From: Escherichia phage vB_EcoM_ACG-C40
Length of the DNA stretch: 64,000 nt
Strand: one strand, 5' to 3'
Sequence record: NC_019399.1
Below, one piece after another: positions 11,318-56,465 of the stretch. Each line of letters starts with the position of its first letter. Within the stretch, counting starts at the first letter, position 1. The position numbers and the translations under genes are program-made. Below the pieces are notes generated by a model, which was given only the letters and a program-made list of their open reading frames with translations, searched no databases and was not told the DNA's origin.

Positions 11318-11920
11318 TTATAGATTAAATCCTTCAAAATCAAGAGTATAGATAGTGTATGTTGAATACTTTTTGTACTCATATCTATCTGCAATTCTAA
11401 ATACACTTCCAGCTGGTATCATTACTTCTTGTTCATCTGAAACTAATTCCATATTACGATAACGATGGCTATCCGGAAACTTAAAGTTTGGATTGTATTC
11501 TTTACAACGTAGAGCTTTTATAGCATACTCCTGGAAATTGAATACCATAGGAGCTTTGAATTCAAAAATAACTTGTGTGTTATACTCTAAACCGGAAGCA
11601 AAATGTAGAGCTATATTTTTATCATATGAAGCTGATACGACTTTATCAAATGTAATAATATCAATTCCTTGATTTAATACTTGCTTAGTCTCAGCTGGAA
11701 CACCTCTCCAAAGAGGTTTATCGTTTGGTTCCAAACGAGATTTGATTATTTCATTTAACCAAGTATGGTCATCTGGTTTATTAGTAATACAATGAATTAA
11801 AAGTTCAATTTCAGATAAATTAAACCCTTCAGAAAGTAATTCTTCACGAATAGAAGCACGCACCGATGCATCCATTGATTTTATTTTAAAATCTTTTAGT
11901 TGCATTACTGAGTATTTCAT
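11318..11920 (-). CDS. modA: ADP-ribosyltransferase ModA-like (200 aa)
   Basis: R...S-x-S...E-x-E ART motif pattern; size matches T4 ModA. Confidence 0.65.
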   Translation of the reverse strand: MKYSVMQLKDFKIKSMDASVRASIREELLSEGFNLSEIELLIHCITNKPDDHTWLNEIIKSRLEPNDKPLWRGVPAETKQVLNQGIDIITFDKVVSASYDKNIALHFASGLEYNTQVIFEFKAPMVFNFQEYAIKALRCKEYNPNFKFPDSHRYRNMELVSDEQEVMIPAGSVFRIADRYEYKKYSTYTIYTLDFEGFNL

Positions 11921-12540
11921 TCAACTACCTCAATATCATAAACTTTAAATGTTCCAAATGAATCGTGTAATTTTTCTTTTGAAATAGAAGTTATTCTATA
12001 CTTTCCAATTGGAATCATCCATTCTTGTTCACGCACAATCATCATTAAGTTATCAGTACGCTCTGAATCTAGCCCATCAGTATCTTCATACGTGTACTTA
12101 AACTCAGTATTAGGAGAAGAAAGTATAATATCGCTGATATGGTCAGAATAATTAAAAGCTTTATCAGTTTTTAAGCGAAATATTATTTCAGTGAAATACT
12201 CAACATAAGAAAAACCACATGCTGTGTGCAAACTAGTAGTAAATGAATCTACCCTATTCGTTGAAAACACTTCTCCAACTTGTAAATCTTTAATGAGTTC
12301 TTTTGTCGATTTTGATATACCACGATATAACTGATAAGGTGATTTAGTTAAATGCTTTTTAACGATTTTATTCAACTGCCGATGAAGAGCTTCATTCTTT
12401 TTAGCTTCCATACATTGCCAAAGAATTGACTGCTCAAAGTCAGTAAATTTTTCACAGACTTTTTTATACATATCATATTGAAAATCAACGCTTTCAGCTT
12501 TTATAGATAACTGTTCAACATCTGCAAGATTAATAATCAT
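11917..12540 (-). CDS. modB: ADP-ribosyltransferase ModB-like (207 aa)
   Basis: Paralog of preceding ORF; size matches T4 ModB. Confidence 0.65.
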   Translation of the reverse strand: MIINLADVEQLSIKAESVDFQYDMYKKVCEKFTDFEQSILWQCMEAKKNEALHRQLNKIVKKHLTKSPYQLYRGISKSTKELIKDLQVGEVFSTNRVDSFTTSLHTACGFSYVEYFTEIIFRLKTDKAFNYSDHISDIILSSPNTEFKYTYEDTDGLDSERTDNLMMIVREQEWMIPIGKYRITSISKEKLHDSFGTFKVYDIEVVE

Positions 12541-14665: not shown

Positions 14666-14695
14666 ATTATACCATACTCATTTTGGAAAGTAAAC
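14666..14695 (-). promoter_or_regulatory. T4-type early promoter
   Basis: GTTTAC, 18 bp, TATAAT. Confidence 0.65.
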
Positions 14696-14710
14696 CGGTA
14701 AAATGAAAAA

Positions 14711-14730
14711 AGGACTCCCTAGGGAGTCCT
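14711..14730 (-). terminator. intrinsic terminator downstream of soc
   Basis: Perfect palindrome AGGACTCCCTAGGGAGTCCT, then UUUUUUCAUUU. Confidence 0.65.
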
Positions 14731-41323: not shown

Positions 41324-41353
41324 ATAATACCACAGTTTGAGCTCGTTGTAAAC
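41324..41353 (-). promoter_or_regulatory. T4-type early promoter
   Basis: GTTTAC, 18 bp, TGGTATTAT; A/T-rich upstream element. Confidence 0.6.
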
Positions 41354-50282: not shown

Positions 50283-51251
50283 TTATTTCAGAAGAGTAAC
50301 CTCAGCAATTTCTTCCCAACCGTTTTTGTCGGTCATAATAAAGTCAGCAAGATAAAGAGCAGTACGCAGTGAAACATTACGTAAACGGTTAACATTGACT
50401 TTCATCCATGATAATGCTTTATAAGTTTCTTCATCAGAAAGACCGCGCTTTTGCATCATGTCGGTTGAAAGAATAACATCTTCAACCCTGACCATAATTT
50501 CTTCATTAGTGTGAACACCCAAATCTAAATAAACTGAGCGGGACACTAATGCTTGTAAATGTGGAGCAAGTTTAGTACCACGGTCTAATTCGCGGTCAAT
50601 GTCAACGTTTGTGATAAAAACAATCGTTCCTTTAAATTCAAACTCACGCTCAATGCCTTTTTCTTCTAAGTAAGAAGATGCAGTGCTCCAGCAGACTTTA
50701 CGGGTCTCTCCAGTGTCCAGAGCAGCTTTCAGAAGATTAAGAATGTCCATATCAGAGAAAACATCCACATCATCAATCAAAAGGACAGAATTCTCTTCAC
50801 GATTATTCCAAAGCTGCTCATAAAGACCAATACCAGAGATTTTACCATTAATGCTTTTATATTCAATGTATCCATTATCATTTGCTTTATTTAAAGCTTT
50901 ATCTAAAGAATACGTTTTACCAATACCCGCCGCACCAGAGATAATTAATGAACGAATGTTTCCGTTAATAATACCATTCGTCATCATTCCCATAACATTA
51001 AATCTTTTATTAATGCGGGTTTTCATATCTTCATATGATTCTTTAACTTCTTCAACTTTTACACCATCATATGAAATGTCTGATTTGTAAACCCAAACAC
51101 CGCGACGCTTACCGTCAATTTCAACAAAAACTTTACCATCTCCTTGTGCATCTACCGGAGCATTATCTGGGAACCATTCGCCTAAGAGCTCAAAAGTTCC
51201 AGAGATTTCTTTACCAAAGTAGATACCCTTATTGATAGTTACAGTTTTCAT
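50283..51251 (-). CDS. AAA-type P-loop ATPase (322 aa)
   Basis: Walker A GAAGIGKT, Walker B LLIDDVD; ATG 51251 after GGAG (track start is GTG). Confidence 0.6.
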   Translation of the reverse strand: MKTVTINKGIYFGKEISGTFELLGEWFPDNAPVDAQGDGKVFVEIDGKRRGVWVYKSDISYDGVKVEEVKESYEDMKTRINKRFNVMGMMTNGIINGNIRSLIISGAAGIGKTYSLDKALNKANDNGYIEYKSINGKISGIGLYEQLWNNREENSVLLIDDVDVFSDMDILNLLKAALDTGETRKVCWSTASSYLEEKGIEREFEFKGTIVFITNVDIDRELDRGTKLAPHLQALVSRSVYLDLGVHTNEEIMVRVEDVILSTDMMQKRGLSDEETYKALSWMKVNVNRLRNVSLRTALYLADFIMTDKNGWEEIAEVTLLK

Positions 51252-51287
51252 TTTATTCTCCAATTTCACATTTGTTTTGATAGGGTA

Positions 51288-51317
51288 ATAGTATCACACT
51301 ACTACCCTGCTGTAAAC
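51288..51317 (-). promoter_or_regulatory. T4-type early promoter upstream of ATPase gene
   Basis: GTTTAC, 18 bp, TACTAT; conserved leader CATTTTATTCTCCAA follows. Confidence 0.6.
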
Positions 51318-51320
51318 AAT

Positions 51321-51584
51321 TTATTTTAATGTTTGCCAAATTTTTACTGCTTCGCGACGAGATACTTCTACAGCTCCAAGTTCTACAGCTTTTTGGCGTC
51401 GCCGAGCGTGTAAGTCATAATGTTTAATGCGTTTATCTTGAAACCAAGAACGTTTCATTCCTATTGCTTCTGCCATTTCGTGAAGCTCTTCAATATCTCC
51501 ATCAGTGAACATATGACAATTTTTAGTTGGATGACCGCGAAGTTTCCATCCATGATTCATTAAAACATCTACGTAAACTGTCAT
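51321..51584 (-). CDS. hypothetical protein (87 aa), GC-richer than surroundings
   Basis: ATG start; compositionally distinct. Confidence 0.5.
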   Translation of the reverse strand: MTVYVDVLMNHGWKLRGHPTKNCHMFTDGDIEELHEMAEAIGMKRSWFQDKRIKHYDLHARRRQKAVELGAVEVSRREAVKIWQTLK

Positions 51585-51730
51585 TGATTCTTCTCCAAAT
51601 AAGTTTCGATAATTTTCTGGGCGAGATAAACCGCGTTATCTTCAGTTGCGTCTTCTAAGAAACTTTCAAAACACTCTGAAATTTCTTCTGTATCAATCAA
51701 CTTTTTTACTTCAATTGGTGTAATTTTCAT
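51581..51730 (-). CDS. small acidic protein (49 aa), not in the ORF track
   Basis: ATG 51730; TGA overlaps next ATG (ATGA); MKITPIEVKKLIDTEEISECFESFLED... Confidence 0.45.
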   Translation of the reverse strand: MKITPIEVKKLIDTEEISECFESFLEDATEDNAVYLAQKIIETYLEKNQ

Positions 51731-51766
51731 TTTGTTTTCCGTTTAAGTGTTTGTTTTGATAGTTGT

Positions 51767-51796
51767 ATAGTACCATAAAGCTTTATGCTTGTAAAC
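51767..51796 (-). promoter_or_regulatory. T4-type early promoter
   Basis: GTTTAC, 18 bp, TGGTACTAT; part of duplicated 37-nt cassette. Confidence 0.65.
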
Positions 51797-51825
51797 AATT
51801 TTGTGAAAAATTTTTGAAATAAAAA

Positions 51826-51845
51826 AGGGGACCTCTAGGGCCCCC
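51826..51845 (-). terminator. intrinsic terminator
   Basis: Imperfect GC-rich hairpin with A-run on plus strand upstream. Confidence 0.45.
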
Positions 51846-51854
51846 TTTATGCTT

Positions 51855-52340
51855 TTATTCCATTTCTATTATATGCATGCTCTTTTTGCTATCAAAATAT
51901 ATGTTTTTAACTGTTAACTCCGAATTAATTGGCAATAAAAACTCTCTTTCATAATCCACCATAGAAAGATTATCATAAAGCTTATTAAGCTTATCATCAT
52001 CAATCTGGCCAGATTCTTCAATTGCGATTAAATTTTCTAAAATTTCAATCATAGCAGTTGAATAGTCAAAAACGTTTGCATTTTTTAACACTATTAAAAC
52101 ATTAGTCATATAGCGTTCTGCTGCAAATGTTTCAGCTATATGAGATTCACTACTAAAGGAAGTTATTCTTTTAAATTTGATTCTCCTATTAACTTCAAAC
52201 TTATGAGATAGTACTTCCTCTATTGCAAGTCCTCTAAAAAGCATGTCTTTAATCTCAAGTTTGTCTTTAATGTAATCATTAACACGCTTATGATTAAAAT
52301 CATTAATTTTGTTGCCAAGGCATTTCATTAAAATATGCAT
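51855..52340 (-). CDS. hypothetical protein (161 aa)
   Basis: ATG 52340 (track start 52355 is TTG). Confidence 0.5.
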   Translation of the reverse strand: MHILMKCLGNKINDFNHKRVNDYIKDKLEIKDMLFRGLAIEEVLSHKFEVNRRIKFKRITSFSSESHIAETFAAERYMTNVLIVLKNANVFDYSTAMIEILENLIAIEESGQIDDDKLNKLYDNLSMVDYEREFLLPINSELTVKNIYFDSKKSMHIIEME

Positions 52341-52387
52341 TGTGTTTCTCTTCAATTTTTAAAGAACGATTAATTAACTACAAATAT

Positions 52388-52417
52388 ATTATAATATGCT
52401 TTATGATAGAAGTAAAC
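52388..52417 (-). promoter_or_regulatory. T4-type early promoter
   Basis: GTTTAC, 18 bp, TATAAT; part of duplicated 37-nt cassette. Confidence 0.65.
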
Positions 52418-52449
52418 AATTTTGTGAAAAATTTTTGAAATAAAAAAGA

Positions 52450-52463
52450 GAGCCCGAAGGCTC
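52450..52463 (-). terminator. intrinsic terminator downstream of nucleotidyltransferase-like gene
   Basis: GAGCC-UUCG-GGCUC followed by U-rich tract. Confidence 0.6.
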
Positions 52464-52467
52464 CCTA

Positions 52468-53481
52468 TCATTTATAATAACTTCGGTGGTTTTCAAGATA
52501 AACCCTCTCAAGGAAGTCATCCCAAAAACCCATGTCTACTTTTTGCTGCATACCGTTCTTAGAAGCTTCAGTAGATGCTGCTTCTACTTGATCGACCACA
52601 TCTTCCAAAAACTCTTGAACCGTTTTAAATGGATGTTTACCCAACTTCACGTCGAGAATAAATGGAGCATCTTGGAGTGGATAAACCAAGTCACCAGTTT
52701 TGTAAATTTCCAATAGTTGGAGTCCACCACGGCAAGCATGACTCAGAGCTTTCCAGTCAATACCTTCATTGGCTTCGGCCTTACGAGCACGTTCACCGTA
52801 TTCAGCATCTAATTTGTTCAGTGACTGCTTAAGCTCAATAAGAGAAAGCGTTGTCTGATATTTACGACCCAACACTGTGTAGAACGTCTGTGGGCCTGTT
52901 TTCTCATGATTATGGAACACCCATTCACAGAATTCGTTTTCTGGAAGACGATGCTTAATATCTTCAACTTTAGTACGACGCTGCTTAATAGAACCATCTT
53001 CTTGGTAATCAACCCATTGCTCAGGGATTTGATTAACTACTTTCAATACATCACGTAATGCAGCCAAACGAGAACCCTTAACGCCGTATTTAGAAGCTTG
53101 CTTACGGACATATCCTAAATAGGATTTCATGTTAGTCGTATAAAAACGAGAACGGTTGTCTTGAATAAACTTCCACACATCAGGCAAATCAGATTTAACC
53201 ACTAGTTCAGGTGGAGTGTGAAGCATATCCAATGCTACAGTTTCACCATCTGCTGCTAATTTAAAGAAATACTTAAGACTATACAATTCGTGGTCAATAT
53301 CATCTTTAGTGTTTTTAGATGATGTGTTGTTAGTGTTTTTACTCATGTGCTCTTTAACATTTCCGATAAGAATATCACGAGCAGGAGGAACAAAGATTTC
53401 TTTAAAATCTACATCAGATTCTGGGGTAGAAGTTCCATAAAGATGACTACCAAAATAGCTTTTCATTACTGTTTTCATCAT
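52468..53481 (-). CDS. pol-beta-superfamily nucleotidyltransferase-like protein (337 aa)
   Basis: N-terminal GSHLYGTSTPESDVD fits the GS-x(9-13)-DxD nucleotidyltransferase signature. Confidence 0.5.
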   Translation of the reverse strand: MMKTVMKSYFGSHLYGTSTPESDVDFKEIFVPPARDILIGNVKEHMSKNTNNTSSKNTKDDIDHELYSLKYFFKLAADGETVALDMLHTPPELVVKSDLPDVWKFIQDNRSRFYTTNMKSYLGYVRKQASKYGVKGSRLAALRDVLKVVNQIPEQWVDYQEDGSIKQRRTKVEDIKHRLPENEFCEWVFHNHEKTGPQTFYTVLGRKYQTTLSLIELKQSLNKLDAEYGERARKAEANEGIDWKALSHACRGGLQLLEIYKTGDLVYPLQDAPFILDVKLGKHPFKTVQEFLEDVVDQVEAASTEASKNGMQQKVDMGFWDDFLERVYLENHRSYYK

Positions 53482-53941: not shown

Positions 53942-54463
53942 TTATCCTTTCATTGAAGGCGTAACGGTTGTTAAATACTTAATCATAGCTTCAGCTTCTG
54001 ATTTTGACAATGAAATTTCTCCATTGTTTTGACGAATAGAAATAAAATCCGGATGACGGTCACCACCAGCTTTTAAAACACACATATAAGTATCAACTTC
54101 GCCTTCAATATTTGAAATGATTGAAGCAGTTCCACATGAATGTGGTTTTTGATAAATCAATACAGCTTTTCTTCCACCGTTTGACTGTTCATAAACTTTT
54201 AATACATCAAACAAATCACTTCTTTTATCAATAGCTAAAATGTTATTTTCATCTTCAATGTTAAATCCTTCGGATACTTCATAAAGTGTCACCCATAAAT
54301 CGCCAATATCAATAACAGCGTTCACTTTTCCATGACTTTCAAGAGCATGACAAATTTTCTTGATTTCGTCATAACTCATTTTAATAATATCATCTCCTTG
54401 AATAAGGAAGATGTCATTTTTAAATTCAACACGAATTAAACCACTTCCACTTGAAATAAACAT
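53942..54463 (-). CDS. hypothetical protein, paralog A (173 aa)
   Basis: C-terminus SEAEAMIKYLTTVTPSMKG resembles next ORF. Confidence 0.5.
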   Translation of the reverse strand: MFISSGSGLIRVEFKNDIFLIQGDDIIKMSYDEIKKICHALESHGKVNAVIDIGDLWVTLYEVSEGFNIEDENNILAIDKRSDLFDVLKVYEQSNGGRKAVLIYQKPHSCGTASIISNIEGEVDTYMCVLKAGGDRHPDFISIRQNNGEISLSKSEAEAMIKYLTTVTPSMKG

Positions 54464-54469
54464 ATTTCC

Positions 54470-55003
54470 TCACTTTGAAATCATAGTTGGAATGACAGAA
54501 TCGAGATAAGTCTTTAGCGCAATAGCTTCGTCTTTGGTAAATGTGACAATATACGATCGAAAATCATCAATTTGACGAATAGTTAAGACATCACCATCTT
54601 CATAGCATTTTGATACGTTTAAAACAGTTTCATCATTCTGATTGCAAGCGTTAGTAATAATAGCATTGCAATTTTTGAGCCATTTTAAACTATGTTTTCT
54701 TTCATTAGAATAATAAAAATATTTAATCTTATCTATAAAACTATCCCAATGGATAACTGATAAACACATTGACTCACTTTTAATATTAAATCCTGGGCAT
54801 GAAGAATAAAAATGAATTTTGTGCTCATCATTGATGCTTACTATTTTATCAGTATAAGGATATTCAATTTGGGTTAAATGAATGATTTCACTAGGCGTAA
54901 AATATAGCATATCGTCTTCTTGCGTCAAACGATACATGTTATTTACTTTTTCTATAGCCAATTCACCAAAAAGCGGACTAACTTCTAATACTAATCGTTT
55001 CAT
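54470..55003 (-). CDS. hypothetical protein, paralog B (177 aa)
   Basis: C-terminus DEAIALKTYLDSVIPTMISK; ATG 55003 after AAAGGA (track start is GTG). Confidence 0.5.
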   Translation of the reverse strand: MKRLVLEVSPLFGELAIEKVNNMYRLTQEDDMLYFTPSEIIHLTQIEYPYTDKIVSINDEHKIHFYSSCPGFNIKSESMCLSVIHWDSFIDKIKYFYYSNERKHSLKWLKNCNAIITNACNQNDETVLNVSKCYEDGDVLTIRQIDDFRSYIVTFTKDEAIALKTYLDSVIPTMISK

Positions 55004-55004
55004 A

Positions 55005-55271
55005 TTAATCCTTTTTATTGGCACGAATTTGTTCTAAAATTTTAGAATATTCCTTTGTATCAGATTTACGTACAATTGATACACTATAAGGCATACTATC
55101 GGTGTCTTTTATAAAGCGTTCCAAATGACACTCTAACAAAATTTCTGGATTATAAATCGTGTACATCAAATTACCTGTTGCTCCACGATATTGGCAGATT
55201 TCTACTGATTGAACACCATTCCATAATTTTGTTAAAACTAAATCACCTACTTCTAATTTAGGAAAGCCCAT
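55005..55271 (-). CDS. hypothetical protein (88 aa)
   Basis: ATG 55271 (track start 55283 is TTG). Confidence 0.45.
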   Translation of the reverse strand: MGFPKLEVGDLVLTKLWNGVQSVEICQYRGATGNLMYTIYNPEILLECHLERFIKDTDSMPYSVSIVRKSDTKEYSKILEQIRANKKD

Positions 55272-56402: not shown

Positions 56403-56432
56403 ATAGTATCACAGCTCAAATGGAAAGTAAAC
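56403..56432 (-). promoter_or_regulatory. T4-type early promoter
   Basis: GTTTAC, 18 bp, TACTAT. Confidence 0.6.
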
Positions 56433-56447
56433 CGGTAAAATGAAAAA

Positions 56448-56465
56448 AGTCTCCCGAAGGAGACT
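56448..56465 (-). terminator. intrinsic terminator
   Basis: AGTCTCC-UUCG-GGAGACT followed by UUUUUUCAUUUUACC. Confidence 0.6.

Follow-up and report, generated by a model that had tools for sequence, protein, structure and literature searches.

Promoter-early stem-loop (PeSL) cassettes of T4-type phages combine in one composite element a terminator that forms a stem-loop, an A/T-rich stretch, an early promoter of the sigma70 type, and an SD with the start codon (Arbiol et al. 2010, PMC2839356; Comeau et al. 2014, PMC4122927). For phages RB49 and phi1, recombination between flanking PeSLs was shown experimentally, with crossovers inside the cassettes and with mini-circles (PMC2839356). The elements were extended to the T4/PST pair, with the consensus TTTACW-N17-TAYWAT (PMC4122927, PMC2839356).

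The DNA analysed (the window) is a 64-kb stretch of Escherichia phage vB_EcoM_ACG-C40 (NC_019399.1), a Tequatrovirus, and all positions are + strand coordinates of this window. An initial annotation had pointed to an exactly duplicated 37-nt piece of an early-promoter cassette and had likened it to the cassettes proposed for modular shuffling in T4-type genomes. This likeness was borne out by the PeSL definition, including the T4/PST consensus. At the locus, a stem-loop terminator directly upstream of the promoter, an A/T-rich region, a sigma70-like promoter (TTTACT-17-TATAAT at 52416-52388 and TTTACA-17-TACTAT at 51795-51767) and an SD with start codon are all present. The two 37-mers are very probably the common core of two tandem PeSL-type cassettes, at which homologous recombination adds or removes a module.

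Anatomy of the interval between nrdC.10 and nrdC.11

The locus is the interval between two conserved flanks, nrdC.10 (50283..51251, minus strand; AAA/STAND-like NTPase, start at the ATG used in T2 and G29) and nrdC.11 (52468..53481, minus strand; nucleotidyltransferase). All genes of the region are on the minus strand. In order of transcription, the nrdC.11 stop is followed by hairpin R (52466-52447), the right 37-mer, a 17-nt spacer and the -10 TATAAT (52393-52388). Next are a 5'UTR with SD, a 161-aa gene (52340-51855), hairpin M (51848-51824) and the left 37-mer. A spacer with TG, the -10 TACTAT (51772-51767), a 49-aa gene, a DUF4031 gene, promoter P1 (51316-51288) and nrdC.10 complete the array. 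Upstream of nrdC.11, two tandem paralogues resembling the putative transcription factor y05I of T4 are located (53942-54463 and 54470-55024, both minus strand), which match Pfam T4_y05I_N and T4_y05I_C.

The 37-mer GTAAACAATTTTGTGAAAAATTTTTGAAATAAAAAAG occurs at 51791-51827 and 52412-52448, with a start-to-start spacing of 621 nt. The initial annotation was right in calling the copies identical: they match exactly, occur only twice, and no exact direct repeat of the 64-kb window is longer. No further copy was found in the window when up to three mismatches were allowed, and none in 100 shuffles. Ungapped similarity of the two copies extends to 54 nt with 85% identity, because both continue into G+C-rich hairpins. 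The A at position 52449 occurs only in the window; the relatives examined all have G. The ancestral repeat was therefore probably 39 nt long and was cut to 37 nt by a G->A change at 52449, through which one G-C pair in the stem of the nrdC.11 terminator became G-U.

Besides the 37-mer, just one exact direct repeat of at least 25 nt is present in the window, a 29-mer common to two other cassettes. Its core TGGAAAGTAAACCGGTAAAATGAAAAAAG is located at 14684-14712 and 56421-56449, 41.7 kb apart, and consists of -35, upstream region and T-tract, with a G+C hairpin adjoining each copy. Recombination between these copies would take out a long segment that is presumably essential; the pair may therefore reflect no more than common descent or conversion.

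Read in the direction of transcription, the 37-mer contains the last stem base and U-tract CTTTTTTATTTC, an A/T-rich UP region AAAAATTTTTCACAAAATT and the -35 GTTTAC. The hairpin proper and the -10 are both outside. The -35 and the A/T-rich element had been correctly assigned to the repeat in the initial annotation; the 'start of a terminator hairpin' was not, since on the minus strand the repeat holds the end of the hairpin and the U-tract. ATTTCAAAAATTTTTCACAAAATT stands directly before GTTTAC in both copies and is the A/T-rich feature known from PeSLs. Each 37-mer thus joins the terminator tail of the upstream gene to the UP region and -35 of the downstream promoter. The right copy (52412..52448, minus strand), which is upstream in transcription, combines the U-tract of the nrdC.11 terminator with the UP region and -35 of promoter P3. 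The left, promoter-distal copy (51791..51827, minus strand), which is downstream in transcription, combines the U-tract of the terminator of the 161-aa gene with the UP region and -35 of promoter P2.

P3 (52388..52416, minus strand) is the predicted promoter of the 161-aa gene and has the -35 TTTACT (52411-52416), a 17-nt spacer and the -10 TATAAT (52388-52393). P2 (51767..51795, minus strand) has the -35 TTTACA (51790-51795), a 17-nt spacer with TG and the -10 TACTAT (51767-51772), and is predicted from sequence to drive the 49-aa, DUF4031 and nrdC.10 genes. P2 is a resident promoter, which in T4 and T2 is directly upstream of nrdC.10. A -35, a -10 and an A/T-rich upstream region are found in both promoters; a TGn element is present in P2 and missing from P3. 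P1 (51288..51316, minus strand; TTTACA-17-TACTAT), upstream of nrdC.10, is the third cassette of the array. SD and start codon are GAAGAGAAACACAATG for the 161-aa gene and ACGGAAAACAAAATG, with a weaker SD, for the 49-aa gene.

Both terminator hairpins are on the minus strand, are stable as RNA and are followed by a T-tract. The hairpin behind the 161-aa gene (GGGGGCCCUAGAGGUCCCC, 51824..51848) has a folding energy of -16.4 kcal/mol (z -2.4) and belongs to the mobile block, and the nrdC.11 hairpin (52447..52466; -13.4 kcal/mol, z -3.4) is resident and outside it.

The gene between the copies (51855..52340, minus strand) had been noted initially and proved to be real, with its own -10, 5'UTR and terminator; its length of 161 aa is counted from the ATG used in annotated relatives. 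Its product (the cargo) had no match in Pfam, NCBIfam or PDB sequence searches and matched PHROG 832, 'RNA polymerase ADP-ribosylase'. BLASTP against proteins of the same window gave ModB (11917-12540, minus strand) with E 2e-13 and ModA (11318-11920, minus strand) with E 2e-12, at 27-28% identity. ModA and ModB themselves had no Pfam ART match either. The catalytic R, S and E-x-E positions of the cargo (LFRG, TSFS and EREF) are aligned with those of the two paralogues (LFRG/LYRG/LWRG, SFS/SFT/SAS and EREF/EQEW/EQEV, cargo first). By paralogy and PHROG 832, the cargo is a putative third ModA/ModB-like ADP-ribosyltransferase that is variably present. Like T4 ModA and ModB, it has the R, S and E-x-E positions in its sequence. 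Unlike them, it lacks about 40 residues at the N-terminus, is encoded 40 kb away from modA-modB and is only variably present. In Escherichia phage BW-1 (locus 1501-1985), the annotation splits the Mod-like gene into two ORFs, and the gene is short of one base, which points to a frameshift. The BW-1 copy is apparently decaying, which is consistent with a dispensable accessory gene.

Distribution of the modules among related phages

The comparison across T4-like genomes that had been suggested as a check in the initial annotation revealed both presence or absence of the gene and a repeat-bounded indel (fFiEco06, CT01, P922). Between 51735 and 53229, phage fFiEco06 differs from the window solely by deletion of 51829-52449 (621 nt, i.e. 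one repeat period), a gap that can be placed anywhere within the repeat. The 874 nt around the site are otherwise 100% identical. CT01 and P922 have the same 621-nt indel, and all three phages carry one exact 37-mer where the window has two and the gene.

Four architectures were found at the site. Both modules are present in the window, G29, G4500, SYGD1, VEc20, AV121, FT, 215Ecol030PP and LF73P3; fFiEco06 and many others have only the DUF4031 + 49-aa module (51321..51730, minus strand; DUF4031 gene 51321-51584, 49-aa gene 51581-51730); T2 and relatives have only the 161-aa gene; and T4 has neither, with a single cassette. The two modules assort independently at the site. In T2 and T4, which are both without the DUF4031 + 49-aa module, the deletion junction is inside a weaker 5'UTR/-10 repeat (51245..51296, minus strand), which pairs with 51724-51775 at 73% identity.

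Two further rearrangements were observed nearby. Between nrdC.10 and P1, Escherichia phage vB_EcoM_FT carries an additional module of 259 nt with an ORF of 201 nt (locus about 660-920, window about 51261). It is bounded by repeated 5'UTR/-10 sequence and is a third independently inserted module between nrdC.10 and nrdC.11. In Shigella phage CT01, a 150-nt tandem duplication resulted in two copies of the 49-aa gene (locus 2644-2939, window about 51479-51730). The nrdC.10-nrdC.11 interval is a hot spot made of a cassette array.

The 161-aa gene was found in 42 phage records of three genera, all with at least 94% nucleotide identity, as compared to about 143 records for the DUF4031 + 49-aa module and about 490 for nrdC.11 (both at least 90% identity); these counts include GenBank/RefSeq duplicates. 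The 37-mer was matched at 99% identity or more in 56 records and is single-copy in most of them. Second copies in genomes that lack the cargo (P922, CT01 and others flagged with two places) were considered and rejected, as only one copy is present within 3 kb on either side. Likewise, no further module flanked by the 37-mer was found in such genomes within 3 kb on each side of the locus. A scan of IMG/VR with a degenerate 37-mer yielded two contigs with one copy each, and the one examined has the empty, T4-like arrangement.

The affinities of the window change at the cassettes. In the adjacent nrdC.11 half (507 positions), 17-23 differences separate the window from the carriers G29, VEc20, SYGD1 and AV121, and none separates it from the non-carrier fFiEco06. 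Over 51268-51798, immediately to the left of the left repeat, VEc20 matches the window without a single difference. From the identity to fFiEco06 on the right and to VEc20 on the left it follows that the affinities switch at both cassettes.

Outside Tequatrovirus, copies of the cargo gene with 97-98% identity are found in the Moonvirus phages Moon and CF1 (both Citrobacter phages) and KM16 (a Salmonella phage) and in the Gelderlandvirus STML-198 (also a Salmonella phage). Viral contigs searched with the cargo protein gave CF1, Moon and STML-198 once more and no others. In all four phages the gene is at the syntenic site, with nrdC.10 74-76% and nrdC.11 67% identical to the window. Segment by segment, the identities of these carriers to the window are 21/23 for the spacer and -10 in front of the gene, 45/47 for the 5'UTR, 479-482/492 for the gene and 19-20/21 for hairpin M. 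They are 14/19 for the UP region of the right copy just upstream of the -35, 8/12 for the T-tract of the right copy and 10/18 for the nrdC.11 hairpin. The spacer, -10 and 5'UTR of P3 thus move together with the cargo gene across genera. On the downstream side, the identity of Moon and KM16 is lost within the T-tract or UP region, that of CF1 continues through a P2-type promoter, and that of STML-198 stops in a degraded cassette. Upstream, the same -35 is abutted by three different resident sequences in different lineages. These segment identities indicate that the transferred unit comprises -35, promoter, gene and hairpin up to the U-tract, i.e. the interval between the 37-mers. Just downstream of the Mod-like gene of STML-198, half a terminator hairpin is fused directly to the -10-like TACTAT, and this degraded cassette resembles the 'half PeSLs' of Comeau et al. 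2014 (PMC4122927).

The longest exact string common to both flanks of the gene ranges from 8 to 37 nt among 19 genomes that carry it, the window having the longest. For the HY01, N2, G2133 and F13076 group, and likewise for the carriers in Moonvirus and Gelderlandvirus, this string measures 8-9 nt. Since these carriers have only 8-9 nt in common, the 37-nt repeat is not required for carriage, and their acquisitions would have occurred via shorter homology or other crossovers.

Recombination at the shared core and competing explanations

The proposed mechanism places the crossover in the part that the early-promoter/terminator cassettes of the nrdC.10-nrdC.11 hot spot share, namely terminator U-tract, UP region and -35. 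The module between two such cores would be self-contained for transcription, as it includes a -10, a 5'UTR, the Mod-like ADP-ribosyltransferase gene and a terminator hairpin. Recombination within the core by the phage's own machinery would then gain or lose the 621-nt unit. A crossover between the two copies would delete 621 nt, leave one copy behind and release a circle with one chimeric cassette. In the opposite direction, integration of the circle, or unequal or double crossover with a co-infecting phage, would insert the module and duplicate the core. Either way, both products would still be correctly terminated and promoted. We infer that recombination is driven by homology at the core and that a circular intermediate is involved. 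The exchange put forward in the initial annotation is supported by sequence comparison, that is by the 621-nt indel of fFiEco06, the four module combinations and the cross-genus boundaries inside cassettes. As to direction, insertion into the abundant fFiEco06-like backbone with its single cassette seems somewhat more parsimonious than deletion, because the 37-mer is single-copy in most of the 56 records.

Position 51799/52420 within the repeat is polymorphic. The window is T/T, T being the allele of the empty site, and every sampled carrier has C at 52420; G29, AV121, FT, SYGD1 and VEc20 are C/C and T2 is discordant. Given C at 52420 in all sampled carriers, a simple exchange with one of them would need its crossover in a stretch of about 8 nt (52412-52419) at the -35; alternatively, the donor is unsampled or gene conversion between the copies took place afterwards. 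The concordant T/T and C/C states are suggestive of concerted evolution, i.e. homogenisation of the copies, with only two independent states being compared. T-even genomes are highly mosaic, and breakpoints near any given site are therefore not rare, which counts against core recombination as the best explanation.

A further-reaching version, which we regard as possible and rather doubtful, would have an active, self-expressed Mod-like cassette moving as a circle among Tequatrovirus, Moonvirus and Gelderlandvirus. The U-tract/UP/-35 core would serve as an integrase-free, promoter-borne attachment site, and the flanking cores would then be homogenised by gene conversion. If so, T/T versus C/C at 51799/52420 would be the trace of this homogenisation.

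The repeat could also be a passive by-product of one old insertion, with presence and absence spread by recombination in the flanking genes nrdC.10 and nrdC.11 and with no crossover in the 37-mer. Among Tequatroviruses, these flanks are 93-99% identical, so that homology of about 1 kb is available on either side, and mosaicism along the locus is extensive. Such a history is nevertheless improbable in view of three observations. The affinity switch in the lineage of the window is confined to the cassettes, with fFiEco06 identical up to both repeat edges. In the adjacent half of nrdC.11, the carriers have diverged from the window by about 4%. Across genera, the flanks (67-76%) are too diverged for flank-mediated exchange, and the limits of identity are the -35 and the T-tract or UP region.

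Still less likely is that the identity of the copies is kept purely by selection on regulation, for an optimal UP region, -35 and terminator tail, with recombination being irrelevant. An extended conserved UP/-35/TGn/-10 architecture is known for T4 early promoters (PMC2988021), and other promoters of the window share parts of the motif, e.g. aattttcacaaa at 41352 and 27078. Sites matching the early-promoter consensus of T4/PST with a spacer of 16 to 18 nt (TTTACW-N16-18-TAYWAT) were compared pairwise over the whole window. There are 16, all on the minus strand (0 on the plus strand). The longest common substring of the 120 pairs has a median of 9 nt, and the other 119 pairs share at most 29 nt, as against 37 nt for the pair 51791/52412. 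In the other carriers, the flanking cassettes have only 8-35 nt in common, and the same promoter is preceded by three unrelated UP sequences. Identity at 37 of 37 positions is thus not explained by functional constraint, on the evidence of the cassette-pair statistics, the range found among carriers and the three unrelated upstream sequences. Selection would also leave the precise one-period indel in an otherwise identical context unexplained.

Least credible is a dedicated site-specific system, in which a recombinase, a homing endonuclease or a protein recognising the GGGG...CCCC stem would use the 37-mer as attachment site: the PeSL authors considered that a helper protein might target the stem-loop (PMC2839356), the upstream junction is at the same nucleotide (-35) in three different contexts, and mobD adjoins nrdC.11 in T4 as an endonuclease gene adjoins nrdC.10 in phage N2, but the module itself encodes only the ART-like protein and the downstream junctions vary (T-tract/UP in Moon, further downstream in CF1, degraded in STML-198). 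No integrase, recombinase or homing endonuclease domain (HNH, GIY-YIG, LAGLIDADG) was detected in the ten largest neighbouring ORFs, over ~4-6 kb, and mobD is absent from this genome. Mobility of the integron type or driven by a homing endonuclease was rejected, as no such gene was found nearby.

Comparison with described systems

Recombination at the core of tandem cassettes, the reading preferred here, was compared with three described systems. At the internal-protein (IP) loci of T-even phages, PeSL-like elements flank interchangeable small genes, according to the accounts of Repoila et al. 1994 given in PMC2839356 and PMC4122927. As far as these accounts describe them, both systems have early promoters with adjacent stem-loops that bound small genes, and T-even polymorphism maps there. 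The locus and the cargo are different.

Deletion between short direct repeats, by recombination or replication slippage, is summarised in the same two papers (PMC2839356, PMC4122927) from Singer et al. 1982 and Albertini et al. 1982. As in the deletions summarised there, a one-period indel leaves one copy and the homology is below 50 bp. Unlike in those summaries, the repeats are regulatory cassettes, both products would be correctly expressed and terminated, and insertion and cross-genus spread are implied.

The nrdC.10-nrdC.11 locus with a Mod-like ART cargo is not described in the literature searched, which contains only general mentions of nrdC.10/nrdC.11 domains and of the nrdC.11 terminator. 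With its one-period indel, independent assortment and transfer among three genera, the locus illustrates the PeSL model in natural genomes with unusual clarity. A 621-bp unit between 37 identical bases is a convenient system for measuring excision, circle formation and the recombination functions needed. A variable third Mod-like ADP-ribosyltransferase also bears on the diversification of host-takeover enzymes in T-even phages.

The closest match is to the published PeSLs. The locus likewise is a variable region of small non-essential genes, in which an ORF is present or absent between close relatives and a single chimeric cassette occupies the empty site. Indel and replacement junctions are likewise inside the cassette, as seen in the 621-nt indel, the four module combinations and the cross-genus boundaries. 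Two features distinguish it from published PeSLs: its two cores agree at every one of 37 nt (probably 39 in the ancestor), and one and the same module is found in three genera. As the mechanism is already published, the locus and its cargo are a clean new instance of a PeSL and no new concept.
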